This document shows, piece after piece, positions 36,791 through 64,000 of a stretch of DNA of 64,000 nt. The stretch lies in NCBI RefSeq assembly GCF_040564635.1, contig NZ_CP159837.1, positions 355,801-419,800 on the forward strand, written 5' to 3'. The DNA comes from Planktothricoides raciborskii GIHE-MW2. Its GTDB lineage: Bacteria; Cyanobacteriota; Cyanobacteriia; Cyanobacteriales; Laspinemataceae. Each line of letters begins with the position of its first letter. The stretch's first letter is position 1. A model generated the notes under the pieces. That model saw only the letters and a list, made by a program, of their open reading frames with translations. It made no database searches and was not told the DNA's origin. Both the position numbers and the translations under genes were made by a program.

Positions 36791-39700
36791 TTAATCCGGT
36801 AAACGCAGGGGGAGAATAATGACAAATTCTGTTCCTTTGCCCGGTTCAGAATGACAGAAAAGGTTGCCTTGATGTTTTTCCACTACAATTTGATAACTCA
36901 CAGAGAGTCCGAGTCCGGTGCCACTGCCCACAGGTTTGGTGGTAAAAAAGGGATCGAAAATCCGGTTTTGGATGTTTTCGGGAATTCCCAAGCCATTATC
37001 GGCAATGCTAATTCTCACAGATTCATGGATCTGTTCGGTTTCGATGATAATCTGAGGGAAATTCTCATCGGATGATAGATTTTGCGCTGGTTTTTCTTTG
37101 GAGTTGAGATATTTTTGTTGAAGGGCATCAATCGCATTGGCGAGAATATTCATAAAGACTTGATTGATTTGGGCGGAGTAACATTCAACGGGGGGTAATT
37201 CGCCAAAGTTTTTAACTAGCTGAATTTCTTTGAGTTGGTTTTGCAGAATTAATAAGGTGCTTTCCAGTCCTTCGTGGATATCCACCCGTTTTTTGGCCGC
37301 TTCGTCGAGGCGAGAAAAATTCCGTAAAGACAGGACAATTTTTCTAATGCGATCGGCGCCACTTTTCATGGACTCTAAAAGTTTCGGGATATCTTCGACT
37401 AAGAAATCTAACTCAACGGCGGCGATTCCTTCTTCAATAATCGGGTTTATTTGGGGATATTCTTGCCGGTAAAGATTCAATAAGTGCAATAAGTCATTAA
37501 TGTAATGGTTCAGGGGATCGAGATTGCTATAGATAAAACTTACGGGGTTATTAATTTCATGGGCAATTCCCGCTACAAGCTGTCCGAGACTGGCCATTTT
37601 TTCATTTTGTACCAGTTGAATTTGGGTGCGTTGGAGTTGATCTAAGGCGTTTTGCAGTTCTTGGGTTTGGTCTTTTAAGCGAGATCGGGAATAGCGCAGG
37701 GCTTCTTCGGTGGTTCTACGGAAGATAATTTCATCTTGGAGTTGCTTGTTGGCATTTTGCAAGGAGGCGATCGCCTCTTGTAGTTCCGCCGTCCGTGCTT
37801 CTACCCGGATTTCCAACTCTTCGTTGGCTTGCTTCAGGGCGGCTTCGGCTTCTACGCGATAGGTGATATCGTGAACTACGGCATAAATTAATTCCCGTTC
37901 CAGATCCGGTGTGGCGTTCCAAAATAGCCACCGATAAGAACCATCGGCACAGCGATAACGATTTTCAAAGGTAATGATTTCTTGTTGAGAAACCAGTTTT
38001 TCTGTCGCTGTCTGGGTGCTGGGTCGGTCTTCGGGATGGACAAATTCCAGAAATGATTTGCCTAACATTTGTTCGGTGGAGATAGCGAGGGTTCTTTCCC
38101 AGGCGGGGTTGAGTTGGGTAAATTGTCCCTGAAAATCGATGACGCAGAGTAAGTCTTGGGAGAGACTAAAGAAGCGATCGCGTTCTTGTTCCGCTTTCGC
38201 CCGATAAGACCGTTCAATGGCCAAGGCCAATAAATCCGCTAACGAGGCGGCAAAGTTTTCTTCTTCAATCGCCCAATGCCGGGGCGCACCGATATGTTCG
38301 TGGCATAAAACTCCCACCATTTGCCCTCCTACGCGAATCGGGGCTTCCAGCATGGAGGTGATACCGAGGGGAATTAAATATTGGTCGCGAAATTCCGCCG
38401 TTCTCATGTCGGTGCGACCATCGTAGGCGGCGATAATTCGTTCCGTGGATAAAACCCGAAAATACGTCGGATAGTCGGAAACTGACAGATCCATGCCAGA
38501 GGTATGACGGTTGGGAGTCTGTTCGTAAAGGTCGAAGCATTTTATCTGAGTGCGTTGGTCATTGTAGATCCAGACGCTGACTCGTTCAATTTCCAAGGTT
38601 CTAGCACTGGCTTCTAGGATTTCTTTGACGGATAACAGCAGATCGTCGGAGCGATCGCTGCTATGAGTTTTGCCAGGGGTGAAATCCTGGGACAGACTGG
38701 TTAGCTTCTGCTGAAAATTGCGGTTGACTAAGGCAAAAATATCTTGAGTTGGCGCATAAGCTTTTCTAAACTCCAGAGAATTTTGTTGTCGATTTCGCTG
38801 CGAGAGTTTTAGTAAGGTGCTGCTTTGAGAACGCAGCCGTTTTTCCCGGAGGGAAATACTGTTGTAAAGCTGGGCATTTTCCCAGCAAATCGCTGCTTGG
38901 GAAGAGAGGAGTTTTAAAATGGTCAGGTTTTGGGAGCTAAACGCGGAACTGGTGAGATGATTTTCCAAATACAGCAAACCCATCATTTTATTCTGATGCA
39001 GAATTGATGTACAAATCATTGATTTTGGTTGCTTGGTCTGGATATAAGCATCTTGGCTAAAGCGTTCGTCCAGGGTGGCATCATCTAGGACCAAATCTTC
39101 GCCGGTTTTCTCCACATAATTAATCACCGACAAGGGGACATACTCACGGGTTTCTACCGGGGAACGTTCGCGACAGCGGTGCGGAGCACTTTCACCCATG
39201 ATGGTTTGGGCTTCATTTAAGACTGCCCTGGCTTTGATCTCCCAGGTGCCTTCTAATTCCCAAAGCAGGCAGCCCGTAGTTGCCCCGGCATTTTCCACCA
39301 GCATTGTCATAATTTGATCGAGTAAATTTTCCAGTATTATTTCACTGCTTAGAGATTGCAAGGCTTTGATGACTGTATTGAAATCCACGGACGGGGGTTG
39401 AGTGGGGGTGATGGGACGGGATGTCCGATCTATCCGATATATCGGATCTATTTGATCTGTTGTGGCGGCAGAATCCAGCTTGATTGGTTGAGTGATGCTG
39501 GAGGAAAATAGTTGTGGATATTTGGTTTCTAGTTGTTTAACGATCGCGATCGCTCCCCAATTTAAATAACCATCATAAGCATCCCGCAGATAAATTTCGG
39601 CAATTTTCTGGTTGCCCCGTTCTTGATAGAATTCTCCTGCCCTTTGGTTGGCGATCGCCGCTTCATGGATATAGCCTTGTTGCGTTGCTCCGGTAATGGC

Positions 39701-42700
39701 GCGATCGTAAGCGGCGATCGCCTGATTTGCATCCCCAAGTAATCGCGCCGTTTCTGCTGCCACCAAGTCAACTTTATGCTGAAAATTCATCGGCGCAGAC
39801 AAAGCCCACTTTTTCAGTTTTCCTTGATACTTGGTGACAATTTTTAACAGTCGGCGCTGTTCTTTTTTTGGCAAGGTTCGCCCCTGCATTAATAACAGTA
39901 AAGAAATATAAAATTTAAATTGAATTTGCGTTATTAAATCCGCATCCTGGTGAATCTTTTGATATCTCTCGATCGTCTCAATTGCTGATTCTGGTTGATT
40001 CCGTAAATAAGCTACTATGATTTTTGCCAGGGCGTTGGCATGGTTGACCGCTAGAGGGCTAGATGCTTCCTGGTTCGGGAAAATTTGCTCGGTTTGGCGA
40101 TCGCATTCACGGCGACTTAAACTAAAAGCCAATTGTTTCCAGAGATTTAACTGGGCGATCGCTAAATTTTGATTCAAGGGTGCTAATAATTCCAGATATT
40201 GCGTAGCCTTATGCCACACAAATAGCAAATTTTCGCCCAAGAAAAAACGGTGCAGACACTCATCAACTGCTGCATATCCTGCATATTCAAAGTCTCCGTT
40301 TTCTAACCCTGATTGAACCGTTTCTCTTAACGGTATAATACTTTCTTTTAAGTGGCATTTGGCTACATTAATCTGACCATAAAACGTTCGATAGACTCTG
40401 GGTTTTAATTCCGTAGCCTCAAATTTATCCAATAAATTTAAAGACAGTTGACCTAACTCATATCCCAGGGCGATCGCCAGCCCCCGCCGACAGAGAAGCG
40501 CCCCATAAATTCCGTACCCATAAGCCGCAAAAGGAGAATTGCCATAAGTCCGGGATAATTGCACCATTTTTAACACCACTAAACTGAATAATCTCGGATT
40601 AATCTGGGCGGTGGGTGGGGCTAAATTCAGCAATATTCGCATGGCAGCTAATTGATAGGTATCGGTCATCAATGGTAATTTTTTTATAGATGTAATCTGA
40701 TTTTCTTCTATAAATAAATTAGCCAGCAATTTTTCCCAAAACTCTGAAAATTGACTGGGAAATTGAGGTAGGATAATTTTTAGTTCTTTTAAGGCAATCA
40801 ACCCATTCATCACCGCTGGCTGAATTTGATTGCTACCGATATAAAACTGAATTTTTAGCTCATATACTTTAACTCGTTCTAAGGTAGTTTTGGCATTTTG
40901 CAGAATCACCTCAGCCCAGGGTTCAATTTGGGCAAATTCCATATTCAGATAAGCCGCTTGTAGGGCTTCGATATGCAGCACCAGGGTCAGGTCATAATGG
41001 GTTTGCCAACTTTCTGGTGTCAGCAGTTTTAACCCCATCGTTAAATACTGATAAGCCGCTTCATAAGCCGTCGCTATTTTTGCTTTTTGTCCGGCCATTA
41101 AATTTAATCTAGCTAATTCATATTTTTGAGATAAATCGGTGATGCTGCTGCTGCCCAAATTCATTTGATTCACAATGGCAAAAATTTCCTCATACCGTCG
41201 ATCCGGTGGCGTATGTTGCAAAAGCGACTGACCAATTTTTAAATGAAGTTTGCTAGATTCATTGGCAGAAATTAAGCCATAAACTGCTTGCTGTACTCGG
41301 TCATGGAAAAATTGATAAACTAATTGAGGAAACTTAATAATTTCAATGTCTGACTGTAGAGACTTTGCGGTCTCTAAATCCTGGGAAATTACCGTCATTT
41401 TCCCCTGATTTAGGCAGGGATTTAGGTAGGGATTTAGGCAGGCGATCGCATAAGGATCGTGTCCTTGGAGGACAATCAAATCACCTTGGATTGCCGGTTG
41501 CATTTGTTCCAGGGTAATTACCAAAGAAGTTTGGGCAGCGATCGCCAGAAACTCTAAATTAAATCGGTTGCCTAGGCAAGCTGCTAATTTTAAAATCTCC
41601 AAAGTGCCTGATGGCAAATTGATCAATTTTTTCTGAATTAATTCCCCGACGTTTTCGGTAATTTCTACGGATTGAATCTGCTCGATATCCCATTGCCAGC
41701 GGCGGGTTTCCCGGTTATATATTAATAGCTTTTGCTGATACAAAGATTGTAAAAGTTGCTTTAAGAAAAAAGGATTGCCGCTGGTTTTATGAAATAACAG
41801 TTCTGCCAAGGGTTGAGTCCATTCTGGAGGACATTGCAGGGTATCACTGATCAGTTCATCGATCGCATTAATCGTTAAGGGACGGAGTTTAATCTCGGTG
41901 ACTCGCTGAGGGTTAGGCTGAGGGTTAGATTGAATTTGATCTAACGTCAATTGCCAAGCTTCAGTTGCCGATAGATCGCGATCGCGATACGTCCCCACGA
42001 TCACCAGACGACTGGGGCGATCGCTCTCAGGATCCCTGTCAGGATCGCTGTCAGGAACCGATAATGGGTCAACCGGGGCGATCGCTTCTGGATCCTCCCC
42101 TGAACTGTTGCTGACTAAGGGGCGATTCCGCGAAGCGGATCCGGAAAGGGAATCGCGATCGCGAACCGTTGCGGATGCAATATCGAAAATCAAGCACTCT
42201 AGTAACTTAAGGGAAGCAGAATCTGCCCACTGGAGATCGTCCAAAAATATCACCAATGGAGAGTTCTGACTAAACACCGAGATCAACTCTAAAAACAGTA
42301 AATTAAACTGATTTTCTGATTCCGTCACCCCAAGTTTTTTGACTGGCGGTTGTTTACCCAGAATCAATTCCAACTCAGGAATGACCTCAACCATGACCTG
42401 AGCATTTTGGCCTAACTTATGCATAATTTTTTCCTGCCAAGCTTGCACTTTGGCTTCGCTTTCCGTTAAAACTTGGCAAATTAATTCCTGCATTGCATTC
42501 AGCCACGCGGAATAAGGAACATTCCGCTGATACTGATCGAATTTTCCCCCAATAAAATAACCCCGATTCGCCACAATCGGCTGATGAATTTCCCGGACTA
42601 AGGCAGATTTGCCAATCCCAGAATACCCAGAAATTAAAACGACTTGTGGGTGGCGGGGACATTTTTTTTTCATGGCATCATGGCCAGACTTACTCGCCGA

Positions 42701-43675
42701 ATTAACCGCTTGAAAAATTTTAATTAAAGTCGCCAGTTCTTTTTCTCGACCGTAGAGCTTCTGGGGAATTTGAAATTGCTCCGCCATATCCTGTTGTCCC
42801 AGGATAAAATTTTCTATAGTTCCGGTAAAAATCAACTGATCTAAACAAGTTTGTAAATCGGCTTGAAGTCCCCGAATGCTTTGATATCTGTCTTCAGCAT
42901 TTTTCGCCAATAATTTGAAAACAATGTTAGCCAATGACTGGGGTATTGCCAATTTTGGATTTAGTGACGGGGCAATCGGCTGGGGAGTTTTGGCAATATG
43001 ACAATAAATCCATTCTAAAGGTTCACTGGCTTCAAAGGGTAGATTTCCCGTTAACATTTGATAAAATGTCACACCCAAAGAATAGAAATCTGTGCGATAA
43101 TCAATGCCCCGATTCATTCTGCCGGTTTGTTCAGGAGAAGTATAAGCGCTGATACCAGGGATATGGCGAAAATCTCTCAAATTATTTCCTTGCCCAGGGA
43201 GGTGTTCTACCGGGCTGGCCATGCTAAAATCAATCAGTTTAATGATTTTACTAATCGGGTTAATTAAAATATTTCCGGGATGAATATTTTGATGAATTAT
43301 TTGTGCTTTTTGTAAGACATCTAAACTCTGGGTTAGCTGAAGCGCCAGAGTCAAAAAATCCAGACAAGATAAGGGATGATTGACTAAAAATTTTGTCAAA
43401 GATTCCCCGCCAAAGTCTTCTAATATTAAAGCCGGGATTCCTTGATTAGTTTGGCAGAGTTCATAGATTTTGATTAATCCCGGATCGTTGAAATTTTTGC
43501 CGATCGCATACTCATGGGTAATCCGCGAAATATTTAACCAATGATTTGGCGATTCTGCCCTAGGAATTTTAATTATTACTGGCTGGCGATCGCGTTGTCG
43601 TTCTCCTCGGTAGACTAATGTGCGATCGCTCTGATGGATCGTTTCATTCATGTTGTATCCAGGGATAAAAATCAT
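36791..43675 (-). CDS. HstK-like giant hybrid signalling protein: Ser/Thr kinase - P-loop (STAND/AAA-like) NTPase - TPR-like helical region - GAF - GAF - PAS - histidine kinase (HisKA + HATPase_c)
   Basis: 2294 aa; N-terminal Hanks motifs (HQNIHPGNILIN, DFSMA); Walker A VLISGYSGIGKSAL; C-terminal H-box HEINNPVSFIYSNL and G-boxes (DNGLGI, GSGTGLGLSVS). Confidence 0.9.
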   Translation of the reverse strand: MIFIPGYNMNETIHQSDRTLVYRGERQRDRQPVIIKIPRAESPNHWLNISRITHEYAIGKNFNDPGLIKIYELCQTNQGIPALILEDFGGESLTKFLVNHPLSCLDFLTLALQLTQSLDVLQKAQIIHQNIHPGNILINPISKIIKLIDFSMASPVEHLPGQGNNLRDFRHIPGISAYTSPEQTGRMNRGIDYRTDFYSLGVTFYQMLTGNLPFEASEPLEWIYCHIAKTPQPIAPSLNPKLAIPQSLANIVFKLLAKNAEDRYQSIRGLQADLQTCLDQLIFTGTIENFILGQQDMAEQFQIPQKLYGREKELATLIKIFQAVNSASKSGHDAMKKKCPRHPQVVLISGYSGIGKSALVREIHQPIVANRGYFIGGKFDQYQRNVPYSAWLNAMQELICQVLTESEAKVQAWQEKIMHKLGQNAQVMVEVIPELELILGKQPPVKKLGVTESENQFNLLFLELISVFSQNSPLVIFLDDLQWADSASLKLLECLIFDIASATVRDRDSLSGSASRNRPLVSNSSGEDPEAIAPVDPLSVPDSDPDRDPESDRPSRLVIVGTYRDRDLSATEAWQLTLDQIQSNPQPNPQRVTEIKLRPLTINAIDELISDTLQCPPEWTQPLAELLFHKTSGNPFFLKQLLQSLYQQKLLIYNRETRRWQWDIEQIQSVEITENVGELIQKKLINLPSGTLEILKLAACLGNRFNLEFLAIAAQTSLVITLEQMQPAIQGDLIVLQGHDPYAIACLNPYLNPCLNQGKMTVISQDLETAKSLQSDIEIIKFPQLVYQFFHDRVQQAVYGLISANESSKLHLKIGQSLLQHTPPDRRYEEIFAIVNQMNLGSSSITDLSQKYELARLNLMAGQKAKIATAYEAAYQYLTMGLKLLTPESWQTHYDLTLVLHIEALQAAYLNMEFAQIEPWAEVILQNAKTTLERVKVYELKIQFYIGSNQIQPAVMNGLIALKELKIILPQFPSQFSEFWEKLLANLFIEENQITSIKKLPLMTDTYQLAAMRILLNLAPPTAQINPRLFSLVVLKMVQLSRTYGNSPFAAYGYGIYGALLCRRGLAIALGYELGQLSLNLLDKFEATELKPRVYRTFYGQINVAKCHLKESIIPLRETVQSGLENGDFEYAGYAAVDECLHRFFLGENLLFVWHKATQYLELLAPLNQNLAIAQLNLWKQLAFSLSRRECDRQTEQIFPNQEASSPLAVNHANALAKIIVAYLRNQPESAIETIERYQKIHQDADLITQIQFKFYISLLLLMQGRTLPKKEQRRLLKIVTKYQGKLKKWALSAPMNFQHKVDLVAAETARLLGDANQAIAAYDRAITGATQQGYIHEAAIANQRAGEFYQERGNQKIAEIYLRDAYDGYLNWGAIAIVKQLETKYPQLFSSSITQPIKLDSAATTDQIDPIYRIDRTSRPITPTQPPSVDFNTVIKALQSLSSEIILENLLDQIMTMLVENAGATTGCLLWELEGTWEIKARAVLNEAQTIMGESAPHRCRERSPVETREYVPLSVINYVEKTGEDLVLDDATLDERFSQDAYIQTKQPKSMICTSILHQNKMMGLLYLENHLTSSAFSSQNLTILKLLSSQAAICWENAQLYNSISLREKRLRSQSSTLLKLSQRNRQQNSLEFRKAYAPTQDIFALVNRNFQQKLTSLSQDFTPGKTHSSDRSDDLLLSVKEILEASARTLEIERVSVWIYNDQRTQIKCFDLYEQTPNRHTSGMDLSVSDYPTYFRVLSTERIIAAYDGRTDMRTAEFRDQYLIPLGITSMLEAPIRVGGQMVGVLCHEHIGAPRHWAIEEENFAASLADLLALAIERSYRAKAEQERDRFFSLSQDLLCVIDFQGQFTQLNPAWERTLAISTEQMLGKSFLEFVHPEDRPSTQTATEKLVSQQEIITFENRYRCADGSYRWLFWNATPDLERELIYAVVHDITYRVEAEAALKQANEELEIRVEARTAELQEAIASLQNANKQLQDEIIFRRTTEEALRYSRSRLKDQTQELQNALDQLQRTQIQLVQNEKMASLGQLVAGIAHEINNPVSFIYSNLDPLNHYINDLLHLLNLYRQEYPQINPIIEEGIAAVELDFLVEDIPKLLESMKSGADRIRKIVLSLRNFSRLDEAAKKRVDIHEGLESTLLILQNQLKEIQLVKNFGELPPVECYSAQINQVFMNILANAIDALQQKYLNSKEKPAQNLSSDENFPQIIIETEQIHESVRISIADNGLGIPENIQNRIFDPFFTTKPVGSGTGLGLSVSYQIVVEKHQGNLFCHSEPGKGTEFVIILPLRLPD

Positions 43676-56640: not shown

Positions 56641-58710
56641 CTAAAGCCATCCTCTAATCTCACTTTCGGTCAGGGTGCGCTCAATTTTTATATATTCACT
56701 TTTCGTCGCTTCTAAAATATGTTTCATCATCACAGGTTCCCCGGCTTCAGCGGCTAAAAATGCCGCATTTATGGCAATATTGCGGATATTTCCTCCGGCT
56801 ACATTCAGTTTGGCTAACTTCTTAAACGCTAATCCTTCCGTTGGGGTTTTTTCGGGGAAAATGCGCTGCCAAATTTCTCCCCGTTGATTGATATCTGGGA
56901 AAGGAAATTGCACCACAAATCTAATCCGGCGCAAAAATGCTTGGTCAATGGAATTTTTTAAGTTAGTGGTGAGAATGGCTAAACCCCGATAGGCTTCCAT
57001 GCGCTGCAAGAGATAGCCCACTTCAATATTGGCATAGCGATCGTGACTATCTTTAACATCAGACCTTTTGCCAAATAAAGCATCAGCTTCATCAAATAAT
57101 AATATCGCGCCGCCCCCTTCAGCAGCATCAAAAACCCGCCGCAAGTTTTTCTCGGTTTCGCCAATATATTTACTGACAATTGAACTTAAATCAATTCGAT
57201 AAAGGTCGAGTTGTAATTGTTTGGCTAAAATTTCCGCTGCCATTGTTTTTCCCGTGCCACTAGACCCGGCAAATAAGGCACTAATGCCTAAGCCTCGGCC
57301 ACTTTTGTCCCCAAAACCCCATTGTTCATAAACTTTTACTCGTTGTTTGACTTGGGCGTAGCATTCTTGCAAAACTTGTTTCTCTTTTTCCGGCAAAATT
57401 AAGTCATCCCAAGTGGCGTTTGTGTCGATGCGTTGGGCTAATTCATCCATTTTTAATCGGGCTTGAAGGCGACAAGTTTGCCACAGTTGATGATGAATTT
57501 TTTCCTGAAGTTCTGTAGTTTCTGTAGGTTCAGTTTGGGCAAAATTTTCGGGTTGACTTGTTTGATATATGTTTTGATTGATTTGATGATTTTCTAGTTT
57601 TTGATTGATGATTCCTTTGGCTTGCAAACAAGCAGAATTAATCGCCGAAGGACTGAGGTTAAAATGGGCGACTAAAGATTCAATATGGCCATTGAGTTGA
57701 GTGGCCATATCACCCAAGGCATTTTGCCAAACTATGCGTTGTTCGCGGGCTGTGGGATGAGTGACTTCTAGGGTAATTAGGGGGCGTTGCCGTTGGGTGC
57801 GCCGATCGCGACTACTGACTATTAAAGGACATTTAATCGTATCAATAAAACGGGCTACGGTTGCCTCTCTCCATGCTTCATTACTTTCTAAGTGGTCGCA
57901 GTCGAGAAATATGGCACTTTTATTTAAAATATATTCGCGATCGCACAAACTTTTCAGTAAATTTTGTTGGGTTTGATCCGCTGGTAAAGCATCTGCTGAC
58001 ATCACCAATAAATTTAGGCCAAGGTCTGCACAAGCTTTAGCCGCGATCGCCTGTTTACTAGCCGGTTCCATCCCACATAATTGTAACACTGGAAAGCGGC
58101 CAAATTCGGCATAACTTTGCCCCCAACTAGCGACAATTTCTTGCGCCAACTCTTGATGAGACGAAACCAACAGTAGGGGCGAAATGCCGTTCTCCCCTAC
58201 CTCAACATAAAACTCTGGACTTAAAGGTTCAACAATGCCATGCAAGCGTTCATCTAAATAATTAACCCCCACCAAATAATGTAAAATTCGCTCATCAATT
58301 CGCAGGGGACTCGTGGCCAAAGTTCTGGCCACACCCACTTCAATTAATCGCCATTTTCGCAGGGGATTTATCGGACTCAGAGCATCCCAATGTCCCCCCG
58401 GAAATATGGCCAAAGCTAAACTAAAAGTCGGATAAATTTTTTGCTCATTATGTTGGGCTTGGGCACAAAGTCCGGCAAATTGAGCATCAAATTCTACCGC
58501 CGCACATAATACTAATAAATCCCTTTCAAAAGGGGAAAGTTGGAAAGATTTACAGACCGTTTCTAACGCCGTCGGTTGGCTGAACTGGCTAGGAGGCAAA
58601 GTCGGCAATTTAACTTGACCAGGATTCTGGTTAATCATTAGTTCTAATGCCTCTTGCACCCGCGCGATCGCACCCATCAAATACTTTTGATTTTCTTCTT
58701 GCCAGTTCAT
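56641..58710 (-). CDS. AAA+ ATPase of contractile-injection-system type (Afp15/Pvc15-like)
   Basis: C-terminal AAA module (GLGISALFAGSSGTGKTMAAEILA...ILLFDEADALFGKR...LLQRMEAYRGLAILTTN) preceded by a 450-aa N-terminal region; last gene of the tail-like cluster. Confidence 0.75.
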   Translation of the reverse strand: MNWQEENQKYLMGAIARVQEALELMINQNPGQVKLPTLPPSQFSQPTALETVCKSFQLSPFERDLLVLCAAVEFDAQFAGLCAQAQHNEQKIYPTFSLALAIFPGGHWDALSPINPLRKWRLIEVGVARTLATSPLRIDERILHYLVGVNYLDERLHGIVEPLSPEFYVEVGENGISPLLLVSSHQELAQEIVASWGQSYAEFGRFPVLQLCGMEPASKQAIAAKACADLGLNLLVMSADALPADQTQQNLLKSLCDREYILNKSAIFLDCDHLESNEAWREATVARFIDTIKCPLIVSSRDRRTQRQRPLITLEVTHPTAREQRIVWQNALGDMATQLNGHIESLVAHFNLSPSAINSACLQAKGIINQKLENHQINQNIYQTSQPENFAQTEPTETTELQEKIHHQLWQTCRLQARLKMDELAQRIDTNATWDDLILPEKEKQVLQECYAQVKQRVKVYEQWGFGDKSGRGLGISALFAGSSGTGKTMAAEILAKQLQLDLYRIDLSSIVSKYIGETEKNLRRVFDAAEGGGAILLFDEADALFGKRSDVKDSHDRYANIEVGYLLQRMEAYRGLAILTTNLKNSIDQAFLRRIRFVVQFPFPDINQRGEIWQRIFPEKTPTEGLAFKKLAKLNVAGGNIRNIAINAAFLAAEAGEPVMMKHILEATKSEYIKIERTLTESEIRGWL

Positions 58711-58871: not shown

Positions 58872-59090
58872 CTAAGTTGATTTCAGCAAATCCTCTAAAT
58901 ACTTTTCCGCCTCTTCTGGAGTCAGCAGCAGTTCTTGATCTTTTCTCAGAATTTCATACTTTCCGCCCCGATAACCATGCCCAATAATCAGCTTCGCTTT
59001 AACTGCCTCATTCCCCAACTTATGCAACCGATTATAACTCAGGGTTTCCATCTCTCTTTCTAATTGTTGTCTCAATTCTTCTTCATTCAT
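58872..59090 (-). CDS. small hypothetical protein (72 aa) between the cap and ATPase genes
   Basis: ORF with a charged N-terminal helix and GHGYRGGKYEILRK segment; no recognisable family. Confidence 0.35.
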   Translation of the reverse strand: MNEEELRQQLEREMETLSYNRLHKLGNEAVKAKLIIGHGYRGGKYEILRKDQELLLTPEEAEKYLEDLLKST

Positions 59091-59201
59091 CGCTTTAATT
59101 CCTTACTTTTGTTATTGGTTATTTGTTGTTAGTTATTAGTTATTTGTTAGGCAAATTTAAGTCAACTAACCACTAACAAATAACCAATAACATATAACAA
59201 T

Positions 59202-60542
59202 TTAGCGGACTAAAATCCTCGGCTCTTTATACCATTGAAATGTCTTACTATTCGGGTCTGTATCCACAGTCAGAAGACTTTCCGCCCCATCAATTTGCAA
59301 CCGCACCAAATATTCCCCTGGTTTAACATTTTCCACCGGAATTGCGATCGTATTTTGATTGGTGCGCCGGACTGGGGCATCAAACAAATAAGCATTGGGA
59401 TTTTCGATGGATTTCTCATTTAAAATTAGCACCACCCGCTGCTTTTTGCCCACAGTCAAATTCACCCGCACTTTGATTTGGGCCGATCGCGTTGGTTCTT
59501 CCCGACCCTGCAAATTAGAAACCGTAGCTTTCAGAACTGTGGGACGCAAAACAAACGGCGCGGCATTCGACTCCAAAGACTGATACGATTTATTGTCTGG
59601 GGAATGATACAAATTTGTCGCCGCTTGTTCACCCTCGGTCGCTGCCGCACCATAGACCGGAATTACATTTAGACGTTGTGTAATCCGATGAATCACCTGT
59701 AAACTTTGCACCCCAGGCATCAAGACATCATCGGGTACTGAACTCAAGGGTAAAATAATCTGATTTTCCGTCACCTCCTGGGGGGTGAGTTCCAATTCCC
59801 CAATGCGGACTAGGGTAGTGGAAGCTTTCAGATTTCTCCCTTGAATTAATAAGGTACTATCTTTAAGAATGGGTTCCCCCGGCCCGACTCGAGAAATCAC
59901 CCGATCCACTATCGGGGAATAACCAAACGGCACCGCTGCCAGCCCGCGAAGACGCACCGGCAAAGCTTTTTTGCTGACTTGTTCCCCTTCCAAAATCACC
60001 ACGCTGGCTTTATAAGCTAAGGATAAAGCGTAGGGAGTTTGGAAAAATACCGACCAAATTTTTGATAAATCTTCCAAAGATAAATTCAGCGGCGTGAAGA
60101 TAATTTGCTCCACCTGTTGATCTAAGTCAGAACTGGCTAAATAAGGAAAAGTTTCATCGGCAATGGTTTCTAGGATAGAGTCTTTATCCAAAATCGCGCG
60201 ATCGTTCAACGCCCGAATCACACTCCCCATGATCCGTTGCGGTTCCAGATCCATATCATTGCCGTAGAAACTAATCAGATAATTCAAATCCCAAGCGGTG
60301 CGGTTTTGCTTACTATCTCTGCTGGTCTGCGATCGCGATCGCGCATCTGCATTCTTTTGCCAAATTGGATTTGGCGTCGTTTGATACAAATACAGATTCA
60401 CACCGCGTTCGGGGGTCGCACTGCCTGCATTCGCTGGTCGAGCCATTGTCACCCTGGTGCCATCGATGTCAATTTGAATCGCCTCCTGCAAAACTCGCTG
60501 CAAAGCGGCGGTGACAGTCGGAATGGCTAAATAATTACTCAT
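59202..60542 (-). CDS. DUF4255-family protein (Afp16/Pvc16-like tail terminator/cap of contractile injection systems)
   Basis: N-terminus MSNYLAIPTVTAALQRVLQEAI... and overall beta-rich 446-aa pattern match the DUF4255 family found in eCIS loci. Confidence 0.7.
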   Translation of the reverse strand: MSNYLAIPTVTAALQRVLQEAIQIDIDGTRVTMARPANAGSATPERGVNLYLYQTTPNPIWQKNADARSRSQTSRDSKQNRTAWDLNYLISFYGNDMDLEPQRIMGSVIRALNDRAILDKDSILETIADETFPYLASSDLDQQVEQIIFTPLNLSLEDLSKIWSVFFQTPYALSLAYKASVVILEGEQVSKKALPVRLRGLAAVPFGYSPIVDRVISRVGPGEPILKDSTLLIQGRNLKASTTLVRIGELELTPQEVTENQIILPLSSVPDDVLMPGVQSLQVIHRITQRLNVIPVYGAAATEGEQAATNLYHSPDNKSYQSLESNAAPFVLRPTVLKATVSNLQGREEPTRSAQIKVRVNLTVGKKQRVVLILNEKSIENPNAYLFDAPVRRTNQNTIAIPVENVKPGEYLVRLQIDGAESLLTVDTDPNSKTFQWYKEPRILVR

Positions 60543-60595: not shown

Positions 60596-61051
60596 TCATT
60601 TATGCAGTTGGGAAATCAACTGCACCCAGCGCGATCGCTCGGAATGTTCCAAACTTAAAATATCATCTAAAGACCAATGAAAATAAAAAGCAATCAAAGC
60701 TACCTCTTGGTATAATTGCTCCAAGGGGTAGCCGAAAACTTTCCCACCCGACACCACATCCAAAGGCTGGTGAATCTGAGCAAAAAAGTCCCGCAAATAG
60801 AGGAGATCGATTAAAAAAAGCTGTTCCAACATTTCGGGAGTCACCACCGATAAATGCCCGAAATCATCAATTAACCGGGACAACATCACCAACATCGCAT
60901 AAGCTGGATTTTGCCTAACTTGGGGATGCTTTTGCACATAAATTTCATCCTCACCCGTAGCGAGTCGCATCATCCCGACTTGATGAATACTTCCCTCTGC
61001 ATCCAAAAATCCCTTGGGCAGGGTAAACTCAAATATTGTCGAATTCCTCAT
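60596..61051 (-). CDS. hypothetical protein, paralog A of a tandem pair (151 aa)
   Basis: Shares FEFTLPKG(F/Y)LD.EG..H..G.MRLA...EI......P.V..NPAYA..(L/V).(M/I)LSR.I...G.L..V.P.M.E.LF..DL.YL..F..QI with the neighbouring gene. Confidence 0.55.
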   Translation of the reverse strand: MRNSTIFEFTLPKGFLDAEGSIHQVGMMRLATGEDEIYVQKHPQVRQNPAYAMLVMLSRLIDDFGHLSVVTPEMLEQLFLIDLLYLRDFFAQIHQPLDVVSGGKVFGYPLEQLYQEVALIAFYFHWSLDDILSLEHSERSRWVQLISQLHK

Positions 61052-61120
61052 ACCAAAACATATATAATACTTAACTATAATACTTAACTATAATACTTGA
61101 CTATAATGCTTAACTGAATC

Positions 61121-61495
61121 TTACTGAAATTCCGTCATCATCCTGCCCATTTCTGGATTTTCTTCAGGGGGGGAAGCGGGGGAAATAAACTCTGGGTCTG
61201 GGGGTTCCAACTCATTAATCTGGCGATAAAACTTTTGTAAATAATTCAAATCAACCGCAAACAGATTTTCCATCATCATCGGACTGACTGACTCCAATGC
61301 CCCCAGACGGGTAATCACCCGCGATAAAATCAGAATCGTCGCATAAGCGGGATTAGATTTCACTCGCGGATCCCGCAAAGGAACAATCTCATCGATCGCC
61401 CTTGCCAAACGCATCACCCCTTTGCGGTGGAGGTTGCCCTCTTCATCCAAATATCCCTTGGGCAAAGTAAACTCAAACTCCGTTTGAATCATCAT
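61121..61495 (-). CDS. hypothetical protein, paralog B of a tandem pair (124 aa)
   Basis: About 45% identical to paralog A; no recognisable family. Confidence 0.55.
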   Translation of the reverse strand: MMIQTEFEFTLPKGYLDEEGNLHRKGVMRLARAIDEIVPLRDPRVKSNPAYATILILSRVITRLGALESVSPMMMENLFAVDLNYLQKFYRQINELEPPDPEFISPASPPEENPEMGRMMTEFQ

Positions 61496-61516: not shown

Positions 61517-61999
61517 TTATAATTTTACTCTTTTTAGCTCTTCCACTGCCACTTCCATTTCTTCAATTTCAAACTCTCCAGAAGTGACAGCCAGGTCAGA
61601 AATCGTATAACTGACTGGCCAAGCATTTTTAAATTCTAATCTAAACTGCGCTTGAGCCCCTTGGTCATAAATCACTAAAGACCCATCCTTTCTTTTCTCC
61701 CCCCACTTCCCTTCTTGTACGGCTTGTAACCAATTCCATAGGGTCATCGAACAAGTCAGCCCTCGACGCAATATTAGATTATTATATTTCACATTGCCAG
61801 GGATTTTTGTAGTCACCACTAAGCCTTTTTTAGATTTGCCCCACTTTTGCGGCGTCACCTCAGTGGCTTCGATAATATCCTGAGTCACTTTAAAGCCGCT
61901 ACATTCCATAAAATAGCCATCCACTGACTCATCGCTGCCATCAAGTTTCAGTTCTAAAAAAAAGCGACATTTGGCTAAAACTTCGGGAAATTTGCCCAC
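61517..61999 (-). CDS. phage T4 gp19-family tail tube protein (CIS tube paralog 3)
   Basis: ...VDGYFMECSGFKVTQDIIE...KIPGNVKYNNLILRRG...LWNWLQ...KDGSLVIYDQ...NAWPVSYTISDLAVTSGEFEIEEMEVAVEEL follows the PF06841-type tube pattern. Confidence 0.8.
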   Translation of the reverse strand: MGKFPEVLAKCRFFLELKLDGSDESVDGYFMECSGFKVTQDIIEATEVTPQKWGKSKKGLVVTTKIPGNVKYNNLILRRGLTCSMTLWNWLQAVQEGKWGEKRKDGSLVIYDQGAQAQFRLEFKNAWPVSYTISDLAVTSGEFEIEEMEVAVEELKRVKL

Positions 62000-62171: not shown

Positions 62172-62657
62172 CTATTTCTTACGCATCAAATATTCATAAG
62201 CAAAGGTGACGGTTTCTGTCAGGGATTGGTTGCCTGCTGCATCAAAGTCTGACATGGCATAAGTCATAGGCATCACCCCTTTAAATTCCCACTGGGCTGA
62301 CTCGGTGCCATCTTGTTTAAAAACTGTAATGGTTGCAACTTGATTTTTTCCTTTGGTTTTGGTTGCCCCACCCACATCAGGGGTCGAATGGGAATCATAA
62401 AACCAATCAGAAACGGCTTTGGGGTTTTTACTAGAGGTAATAAATTTGATCGTGATATCGTGGGATTCTACGGCGGAAGGAGCGGCTTGTCGGTTAACTT
62501 TACTCCCCTTAGTCACCCCCAATGGCCCATCAGATTGAGTCACCGGAATGGTCAATTTCAAGCCAGAAACAGATTCGACTAAGAGACCCTCATCGAGATT
62601 ATCTGCTTTAAATTGAAACCTAGCCTGGGATAGCGGTTCGCCTACGGTATCTGGCAT
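62172..62657 (-). CDS. tail tube protein (CIS tube paralog 2, Afp1/Afp5-like)
   Basis: 161 aa with the tube-family pattern (F.FK.D......ESVSGL.L.I......ITIKFITSSKN...SDWFYDS....NQVATITVFKQDGTESAQWEFKGVMPMTYAMSDFDA...ETVTFAYEYL). Confidence 0.75.
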   Translation of the reverse strand: MPDTVGEPLSQARFQFKADNLDEGLLVESVSGLKLTIPVTQSDGPLGVTKGSKVNRQAAPSAVESHDITIKFITSSKNPKAVSDWFYDSHSTPDVGGATKTKGKNQVATITVFKQDGTESAQWEFKGVMPMTYAMSDFDAAGNQSLTETVTFAYEYLMRKK

Positions 62658-62736: not shown

Positions 62737-63210
62737 TTAACTTTGTTTGCGCTCAACGCTTTCTACATTCAGGGTGAATGTTTCCGTTAAAAAGTCTTGA
62801 CCGCCAACATTAAATTCAGAAACTTCATAACCTACCATCTGACATTGTTTCAGGTTGTAGGTGATGACTAATTTAGCGTCGGCATCAAAGATTTCTATGG
62901 AACCATCGGTAAAACATTGACTCCATTTGCCATCGCCGCCATAAGTGGCTGGCATCCCTTTTTTGAAGAGGTCAAATAGTTTTTTATTCTTATCTTCAAT
63001 AACGGCGGTAATGGTGACATCTTGGTTGTTGTAGTACCCAGTTGAAGTGGTGTTTCTGGTCATCTGGGCTTTGGCTGTAGAGGCGATCGGCTTACCGTGA
63101 CCAGCGGTTTTGGCTTGAATATTAATGCCGCTAACTTTCAAGAGTGGATACTCGGTGCCACCATATTTAAATGAAAACCTGTTAGAAGAAATAGTAAGCA
63201 GGTCTGCCAT
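62737..63210 (-). CDS. tail tube protein (CIS tube paralog 1)
   Basis: 157 aa; ...YPLLKVSGINIQAK...VTITAVIEDKN..LFDLFKK...GSIEIFDADAKLVITYNLKQCQMVGYEVSEFNVGGQDFLTETFTLNVESVE tube-family pattern. Confidence 0.75.
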   Translation of the reverse strand: MADLLTISSNRFSFKYGGTEYPLLKVSGINIQAKTAGHGKPIASTAKAQMTRNTTSTGYYNNQDVTITAVIEDKNKKLFDLFKKGMPATYGGDGKWSQCFTDGSIEIFDADAKLVITYNLKQCQMVGYEVSEFNVGGQDFLTETFTLNVESVERKQS

Positions 63211-63517: not shown

Positions 63518-64000
63518 TTATTGGCCATATTGGCCAGGAGCCCACTGACTGATGCGGAAGATGACAAATTCCGCTGGACGCACAGGGGCGACACCCACTT
63601 CGATATAGAGGCGTCCTTTCATCATGGTGTCTGGGGTATTGAGATCCCCGTCGCACTTGACATAGAAGGATTCACTGACGTTGCTGCCCACTAAAGCCCC
63701 TTCACGCCATAGCCCAGTTAAGAAGCTGGAAACGGTCTGACTGACTCGACCCCAGAGGGCTTCGTCGTTGGGTTCAAAGACTACCCATTGAGTGCCAATT
63801 TCAATGGATTTTTCGATGTAGCTCATTAAGCGGCGAACGGGAATATAGCGCCATTGGATGTTGTCCGGTTCAACGAGGGTGCGAGCGCCCCAAATTTTAA
63901 TGCCCCGGTTGAAGTTGGCAAAGTTGCGGATGCAGTTGATGCCGAGGGGGTTGAGGAGTTCTTGTTCCCGGAAGTTGGTTTCGTAGGCTAGACCAATGAC
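63518..64000 (-). CDS. contractile tail sheath protein, C-terminal part (gene continues beyond the window end)
   Basis: Frame stays open upstream of the listed Met to position 64000 (...GINCIRNFANFNRGIKIWGARTLVEPDNIQWRYIPVRRLMSYIEKSIEIGTQWVVFEPNDEALWGRVSQTVSSFLTGLWREGALVGSNVSESFYVKCD...GRLYIEVGVAPVRPAEFVIFRISQW), the canonical sheath C-terminal domain. Confidence 0.85.
   Translation of the reverse strand, partial: VIGLAYETNFREQELLNPLGINCIRNFANFNRGIKIWGARTLVEPDNIQWRYIPVRRLMSYIEKSIEIGTQWVVFEPNDEALWGRVSQTVSSFLTGLWREGALVGSNVSESFYVKCDGDLNTPDTMMKGRLYIEVGVAPVRPAEFVIFRISQWAPGQYGQ

Follow-up and report, generated by a model that had tools for sequence, protein, structure and literature searches.

A paralogous pair of probable tail assembly chaperones in a cyanobacterial contractile injection system, one of which carries in frame the extension that related loci appear to reach by −1 frameshifting

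The 64,000-nucleotide (nt) stretch of Planktothricoides raciborskii GIHE-MW2 DNA analysed here (contig NZ_CP159837.1, positions 355,801 to 419,800; the window) carries at its right end, on the minus strand, an operon-like row of genes of a contractile injection system (CIS). The row begins with the 3′ part of a sheath gene (63518–64000; Phage_sheath_1C, E = 3e-15), whose frame is open to base 64000 and cut by the window end. It continues with three gp19-type inner-tube genes (62737–63210, 62172–62657 and 61517–61999; PF06841, E = 2e-9 to 7e-28), the last of which also matches the NCBIfam models CIS5_fam and CIS1_fam, each below the cut-off. Two small genes follow, here called A (61121–61495; 124 amino acids, aa) and B (60596–61051; 151 aa), which are the subject of this work. 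Beyond them lie a cap or terminator gene with Pvc16_N/DUF4255 and TIG domains (59202–60542; PF14065, E = 2.9e-42), an open reading frame (ORF) of 72 aa (58872–59090) and an AAA+ ATPase gene of the Cis15/Pvc15 type with WHD and AAA domains (56641–58710; PF00004, E = 2e-25; PF22977, E = 3.5e-18). Neither A nor B matches the CIS tube and tube initiator profiles (PF06841, CIS_tube), the first of which is matched by the three neighbouring genes, and A, B, the cap gene and the 72-aa ORF all lack a family in NCBIfam.

A preliminary description of this DNA, made without database searches, had reported two adjacent minus-strand genes of 124 and 151 aa, a sequence motif common to both products and a location between tube and cap genes, and in all three respects we found the locus as described. 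It had put the identity of the two proteins at about 45%; the relationship holds, and the figure is a slight underestimate for the aligned part. BLASTP aligns residues 5–95 of each without gaps, with 48 of 91 residues identical (53%), 74% positives and E = 2e-34. The paralogy of A and B is thus real and far beyond chance. Both proteins share an N-terminal domain (hereafter the N-domain). In A it spans aa 1–95 and is followed by a Pro/Glu-rich tail, with no extension domain; in B it spans aa 1–96 (60764–61051), as a diverged paralog, and precedes a second domain at the C-terminus. Between the genes lies a tandem repeat (61063–61115; unit AAGTATTATAGTT on the minus strand), to which Tandem Repeats Finder assigns a period of 13 bp, 4.1 copies and 92% matches, and not three copies of 14 bp as originally counted.

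The N-domain points to a function in tail assembly. In PHROGs, phrog_508 ('tail assembly chaperone') is matched by A at E = 1.7e-4 and by B at E = 1.3e-3, and also by the N-domains of 51 of 55 relatives, with a best value of 2.3e-10. The Pfam family Phage_TAC_7 (PF10109), which gpE of phage P2 itself matches at 1.5e-12, is matched by 21 of the 55 N-domains (best 1.5e-4, below the gathering score), and gene A has a weak Pfam match to Gp41_Mu. Matches in BFVD include a tape measure chaperone and FS-gp41 of phage Mu. An AlphaFold model of B (predicted local distance difference test score, pLDDT, 87; predicted template modelling score, pTM, 0.79) comprises a β-hairpin with helices (residues 1–92), a disordered linker (97–104) and a C-terminal domain of three helices (109–149, with helices at 109–123, 127–131 and 135–149). 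Compared with the solved tail assembly chaperone (TAC) structures of Bacillus subtilis YqbN (3klu) and phage HK97 (2ob9), the N-domain has the TAC fold. Sequence and profile searches of the PDB with B, the N-domain alignment and the alignment of the C-terminal domain returned nothing meaningful, and only the fold comparison worked. Moreover, the place of A and B, directly downstream of the genes for sheath and tube, is that of E/E′ in P2. We conclude, with a probability of roughly 0.8, that A and B serve this CIS as tail assembly chaperones, comparable to gpG/gpGT of phage lambda, gpE/gpE+E′ of P2 and gp41/FS-gp41 of Mu. The three gp19-type tube proteins would be the expected clients.

The C-terminal domain of B (aa 110–149, three helices; 60596–60724 including the stop codon) matches Pfam DUF6760 (PF20546) with E = 8.7e-11 and 42.2 bits, against a cut-off of 27, as do all 45 C-terminal domains of relatives that were tested. 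Phage_P2_GpE (PF06528), the Pfam family matched by the E′ part of the P2 protein, is found as a weak match in B and in 23 of the 45 relatives. When the DUF6760 alignment (A2) was compared with P2 E′ by hhalign, a probability of 90% and E = 1.5e-6 were obtained over 39 columns, with the motif (D/E)VA.I..FHW(S/P)..(D/E)(I/L) common to both. By this measure, the C-terminal domain of B is very probably homologous to the E′ extension of gpE+E′. The gene order of P2 is sheath FI, tube FII, E, E+E′ (an annotated −1 frameshift) and tape measure T.

A short helical domain encoded just after the tube genes also recalls a structural component of the finished particle, namely the Cis6/Afp6/Pvc6 'spike plug', a helical trimer that sits in the spike cavity and faces the tube lumen. 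The gene afp6 directly follows the tube gene afp5, the same position as that of the TAC genes. Its product is likewise a short helical protein, one that is essential for assembly (PMC12546770; PMC8894136), and afp6 is reported to be absent from most lineage II loci (PMC6899500). An hhalign comparison of A2 with Afp6 even aligns RWVERIKQ with RWVxEIxK; however, this match covers only 11 columns at a probability of 26%. Afp6 belongs to Pfam DUF5908 (1.8e-10) and not to DUF6760, and neither A nor B matches DUF5908. A PDB profile search with the DUF6760 alignment, taken to E values of 10, finds no Cis6, Alg6 or Pvc6 chain, and in lambda the frameshift product is not part of the virion. We therefore regard it as very unlikely that the DUF6760 domain of B is the counterpart of the plug. 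A variant of this idea, which we consider speculative and improbable, is that an extension of the DUF6760/E′ type stays behind as the plug of the spike cavity, and that the stand-alone Cis6/Afp6/Pvc6 protein is what remains of the frameshift extension once carried by an ancestral tail assembly chaperone. If true, it would link two components now treated as unrelated and would explain both why afp6 occupies the chaperone gene position and why it is apparently absent from most lineage II systems.

The family is not confined to cyanobacteria. A word-indexed search recovers at least 8000 members, and an exhaustive search of representatives at 50% identity recovers 1923 clusters at E ≤ 1e-3 and 987 at E ≤ 1e-10. 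Hosts include cyanobacteria, NC10, Thermodesulfobacteriota, Nitrospirae, Calditrichaceae and the archaeon Methanoperedens. The loci of Methanoperedens and Calditrichaceae have the order cap, sheath, tube, TAC and DUF6760, followed by tube, LysM, VgrG, PAAR and gp25. In the Calditrichaceae locus (L088) an ORF of 381 aa directly follows DUF6760 and is a plausible candidate for the tape measure; the ORFs of about 375 aa that adjoin the TAC module in this locus and in a Methanoperedens locus (L086) have no match in Pfam or NCBIfam. The family is thus a widespread module of Afp/PVC-related injection systems and not a cyanobacterial invention.

This distribution bears on the interpretation first given to the pair, that of a lineage-specific and previously undescribed family acting as a tube–cap adaptor or as a membrane or thylakoid anchor. 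The place of the pair between tube and cap genes in this type of cyanobacterial cluster is what speaks for an adaptor or anchor. Against it stand the spread of the family across phyla and into the archaea, the TAC fold and TAC profile matches, and the gene order of other loci, where the pair adjoins tube and candidate tape-measure genes and not the cap gene. In addition, neither A nor B contains a hydrophobic segment, and no transmembrane or anchor features were found in their sequences. We give this explanation next to no weight. The family is also not undescribed, since the source databases already name members 'phage tail assembly protein', 'phage FluMu protein gp41' or 'DUF6760 family protein'; the protein kind is already known and partly annotated. 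The preliminary description was right to propose an assembly component and to list a chaperone among the options, in agreement with the TAC matches. Its statement that no CIS core family is matched stands for tube, gp25 and PAAR but overlooks the above-threshold DUF6760 match of B and the TAC profile matches of both proteins. It had itself foreseen that profile or structure comparison might reveal ordinary known components, and essentially this is what was found.

To see how DUF6760 is encoded elsewhere, relatives were located by a scan of one genome per species. At least 538 loci encode them, of which the best 80, nearly all cyanobacterial, were kept; 83 loci in total were surveyed with hidden Markov models of the N-domain and DUF6760, and in 78 of them a B-type N-domain is immediately followed by DUF6760. 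The close homologs of B fall into a long class of about 151 aa, with DUF6760, and a short class of about 105 aa whose C-terminus is ...G-E-F or G-K-F. The relationship between the two is seen in L001, a syntenic metagenomic contig in which a sheath gene, three tube genes, an A-like gene, a short B gene, a cap gene, a 71-aa ORF and an AAA+ ATPase gene follow one another. Here the DUF6760 sequence directly follows the stop codon of the short B gene in the −1 frame, the junction reading GAG GGA AAG TTT TAG, and a −1 slip at G_GGA_AAG would yield a product colinear with B of the window. This heptamer is also that of lambda G/GT.

The arrangement in L001 is the rule. DUF6760 lies in the −1 frame in 74 of the 78 loci, with the two open frames overlapping by 25–226 nt, mostly 31–40 nt. 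All 74 overlaps contain a heptamer in phase with the upstream frame (G_GGG_GAR in 69, G_GGA_AAG in 2, G_GAA_AAG in 2 and T_TTT_TTT in 1), and in 56 of them the GGG codon is followed two codons later by the 0-frame stop. At the protein level the −1 ORF shows strong conservation (YP..L.EEVA.IA..FHWS..DIL.LEH..R.RWV), which implies that it is translated. Synonymous codon choice in the slip site and in the stem of the hairpin described below is nearly frozen when compared with long ORFs in the same loci: Val is GTA in 69 of 70 cases (background 23%), Glu is GAG in 70 of 73 (24%), Pro is CCC in 65 of 73 (26%) and Gly is GGG in 54 of 54 (16%), and the codon preceding GGG always ends in G.

A hairpin of the form (A/G)GCUACC.CY, 16-nt loop, RG.GGUAGC(U/C) begins 5–6 nt after the heptamer. 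Across 50 aligned loci its positions are paired in 97.6% of cells, compared with 33–58% when the 3′ partners are slid by 1–3 columns. The closing pair covaries (AU in 20, GC in 17), and an inner pair changes from C-G to U-A in two loci (L045 and L081), where the encoded Val thereby becomes Ile. The Calditrichaceae locus shows a further compensatory variant, GGCUAUC...GAUGGCC, and the same in-phase heptamer and hairpin occur in the loci of Candidatus Methanoperedens (L086 and L087) and Calditrichaceae. Heptamer, nearby stop and covarying hairpin together make up the usual sequence signature of programmed −1 frameshifting. An additional outer helix proposed by RNAalifold (columns 20–28 with 82–91 of alignment A6, at about 60680–60745 in the window) shows no covariation and was not adopted; it consists mostly of G-U pairs between the run of G in the slip site and UUUUCACUGG, about 55 nt downstream.

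Some further features of the family were noted in passing. Between the chaperone N-domain and the slip site, an insert containing one CPxC motif (e.g. ...QCPHCNTQFSVELELAGG) is present in most members, as in L011, L013, L047 and most other loci and in proteins P0054, P0106 and P0118; the insert is absent from B of the window and its close relatives. Proteins P0019, P0022, P0020 and P0135 contain two or three tandem fused chaperone N-domains, with the ...PGES slip-site motif still terminal. The single T_TTT_TTT heptamer, which replaces the G-rich one, comes from L070 (1803–2263), a contig of only 2.3 kb with a non-cyanobacterial label, that of a Candidatus Izemoplasma acidinucleici metagenome-assembled genome. 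In L077 (5491–5770) the A-type gene is split into two partial N-domain matches in different frames, which may reflect a pseudogene or a sequencing error.

In the window, no frameshift of the kind expected for a TAC pair is present, B being one continuous ORF. It belongs to the 4 of the 78 loci that are in frame, together with L003, the NC10 locus L004 and L005, the last of which contains a run of N and is unreliable. Across the former frameshift junction B reads TCG GGT GGG AAA GTT TTC GGC TAC CCC in a single frame (TCG GGT GGG AAA GTT TTC, translated as S G G K V F, at 60734–60751), and relative to L001 it has one extra nucleotide upstream of GGGAAAG. B keeps both this heptamer (60737–60743) and the hairpin (60696–60733; GGCUACC.CUUGG...CCAAG.GGUAGCU in the centroid structure and by comparison with relatives), and both are relics of the frameshift. 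The fold of the hairpin region in the window is not more stable than that of shuffled sequences (z = −0.16), the support for the hairpin being comparative and not derived from the window alone.

An assembly error as the origin of the in-frame gene was considered and rejected. L003 (Oscillatoriales cyanobacterium S07.Bin090) encodes a protein 98% identical to B in the same in-frame gene, and the same arrangement is found in P0001 (5 contigs), P0002, P0003 and P0005 (Ancylothrix), the last three being more distant relatives than P0001 and L003, which come from assemblies independent of that of the window. In-frame fusions of the N-domain and DUF6760 also occur in other phyla (P0026, P0033 and others). 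Their presence in several lineages indicates that both parts act as one polypeptide.

An A-type gene lies upstream of B in almost all of the 83 surveyed loci. The N-domain of A is 73% identical to that of a single-copy TAC from a Thermodesulfobacteriota CIS (P0054) and 68% identical to that of Methanoperedens, whereas the N-domain of B is only 46–47% identical to the same proteins. By these values A is the conservative copy, which lost the extension, and B the diverged copy, which kept it. With both of its parts in one frame, B makes only the long form and A supplies the protein consisting of the N-domain alone. The simplest reading is therefore one of subfunctionalisation, in which the frameshift in B became dispensable in the lineage of the window because A provides an N-domain-only chaperone.

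These observations can be combined into a proposed mechanism. In most related loci, one gene would give two products, the N-domain by itself and a longer protein made of the N-domain and DUF6760, the latter requiring a −1 ribosomal frameshift at G_GGG_GAR stimulated by the hairpin 5–6 nt downstream. In cyanobacteria the gene is duplicated into A, without the extension, and B, with it, and in the lineage of the window a one-nucleotide change has put both parts of B in one frame. In lambda, where the ratio of G to GT is about 30:1, the tape measure is bound by G and the tube protein by T, and the virion contains neither (PMC5009743). By analogy, the N-domains of A and B may bind and coat the tape-measure protein, and the DUF6760 domain of B may bind a tube protein and thereby nucleate, on the baseplate, an inner tube of the right length. 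Both chaperones would then be displaced and be absent from the finished particle. The ratio of short to long form, set by frameshift efficiency in phages, would here have to come from how strongly A and B are expressed relative to each other. We found no evidence that the spacer between the two genes or its 13-bp repeat sets this ratio. The spacing varies among loci from about 25 to more than 400 nt, the repeat is not conserved (L001 has different repeats and a 384-nt spacer at this place), and a promoter and terminator scan gave counts not above those of shuffled sequence, hence no evidence that the spacer regulates B.

Several points weigh against this picture. The matches to TAC profiles are only moderate across the family and weak for A and B of the window (E = 1e-3 to 1e-4), those in Pfam lie below the gathering thresholds, and hhalign found no match between the N-domain alignment and the single P2 gpE sequence, probably because a template of one sequence is too weak. 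No candidate for the tape-measure gene of this system was found within the region of the window that was examined, and the gene following the A/B pair is the Pvc16_N cap gene and not a tape measure. In most cyanobacteria paralog A exists alongside a B gene that retains the frameshift; A is thus not simply a substitute for the short form of B, which probably still has a role in these other cyanobacteria. Frameshifting in the relatives is, moreover, something we infer from sequence only, and in E. coli reporters sites of the G_GG.G type were barely slippery; with a following G, they were proposed to act as Shine–Dalgarno sequences driving initiation in the −1 frame (Sharma et al., PMC4066793).

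The reporter results lend some credit to a different account, in which the relatives make DUF6760 as a separate small protein, either with GGGGGAG as the Shine–Dalgarno sequence or by termination and reinitiation at an overlapping stop, and B of the window is a secondary fusion of two interacting proteins. Gene callers do annotate DUF6760 as separate ORFs of 52–77 aa, and a few loci (e.g. L049 and L054) have AUGA or UUGA stop/start overlaps. Yet a conserved start codon in the −1 frame is missing from most loci, the NUA or NUG that overlaps the stop is simply due to the stop codon itself, and the distance from GGAG to any candidate start is only 0–4 nt. Separate initiation also leaves unaccounted for a heptamer that is always in phase with the upstream frame and a covarying hairpin at the canonical frameshift spacing of 5–6 nt. 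The variants G_GGA_AAG and G_GAA_AAG are slippery and are not better Shine–Dalgarno sites, the homologous E/E′ pair of P2 is annotated as a −1 frameshift, and in-frame fusions are found in nature. Taken together, separate translation of DUF6760 appears unlikely, and we retain the view that A and B are probably a chaperone pair whose relatives would produce the long form by frameshifting.

The remainder of the locus offers some further observations. The 72-aa ORF, which has no family match in Pfam, NCBIfam or PHROGs, is conserved in L001 (10969–11184, encoding 71 aa), where it also lies between the cap and AAA+ ATPase genes. In the Calditrichaceae locus a 70-aa ORF also precedes the ATPase gene, with no sequence similarity to that of the window. 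The gap between the cap gene and the 72-aa ORF (59110–59200) holds an AT-rich imperfect inverted repeat with arms of 26–28 nt that are 86–88% complementary. It gives sub-threshold Rfam matches to miRNA-precursor models on both strands, which mark it simply as a long hairpin, and an Rfam scan of 56–64 kb yielded nothing above threshold. A class I methyltransferase gene lies between the B-type chaperone and cap genes in two contigs that are otherwise syntenic, L001 (8410–9210) and L002 (7552–8352). Farther away in the window, a very long ORF of 2294 aa occupies 36791–43675 on the minus strand.

The standard CIS nomenclature (Cis1–16 and Cis19) has no place for a tail assembly chaperone, and the module of TAC and DUF6760 is widespread and well conserved in bacterial and archaeal loci. 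In the searchable literature, which is incomplete and in which absence is not proof, we found no statement that these injection systems encode a G/GT-type chaperone or that DUF6760 is an extension of the E′/T type, no description of a conserved frameshift signal in CIS, and no report of a frameshift replaced by duplication and fusion in some lineages. The searchable comparative and structural papers on CIS mention neither chaperone nor frameshift. The sequence evidence points to hundreds of species with a programmed −1 frameshift in chromosomal genes, at G_GGG_GAR and with a covarying hairpin. This would, if confirmed, be a large non-phage addition to the known cases of recoding, with an unusual G-rich slip site. 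The lineage of the window, in which a duplicated gene and an in-frame fusion would have replaced the frameshift, represents a natural experiment that could test why phage tails keep a fixed ratio of short to long chaperone, and it offers a frameshift-free design for engineered injection systems. For annotation, DUF6760 ORFs belong joined to the upstream 'phage tail assembly protein' gene.

Comparing A and B with known systems, the plug proteins Cis6/Afp6/Pvc6/Alg6 resemble them in being small, helical and essential for assembly, and in being encoded directly after a tube gene. However, these proteins belong to Pfam DUF5908, the resemblance is limited to 11 residues, and they are structural parts of the particle, which TACs are not known to be.

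The gpG/gpGT pair of lambda shares with the present system two products with a common N-terminus, and L001 and L002 use its G_GGA_AAG heptamer, of which a relic is left in the window. Whereas the lambda tail is non-contractile and its product ratio is set by frameshift efficiency, the ratio in the window must be a matter of the expression of two genes. The likeness to lambda concerns the heptamer and the proposed mechanism, which is taken from that phage.

The closest known systems are gpE/gpE+E′ of P2 and, with it, gp41/FS-gp41 of Mu. Like the CIS of the window, P2 has a contractile tail, its chaperone genes directly follow those for sheath and tube, and the N-domains match the same family. 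Both also appear to share a homologous C-terminal extension with (D/E)VA.I..FHW...W, which the relatives of B would reach, as P2 does, by slipping into the −1 frame shortly before the short ORF ends. The two differ in that the tape measure gene comes next in P2 and the cap gene in the window, which holds a chromosomal CIS and not a phage, and in that the slippery site is T_TTT_TTG in P2 and G_GGG_GAR in the relatives of the window. Most distinctly, the extension in the window is in frame and needs no frameshift, and a second paralog with only the N-domain stands beside it.

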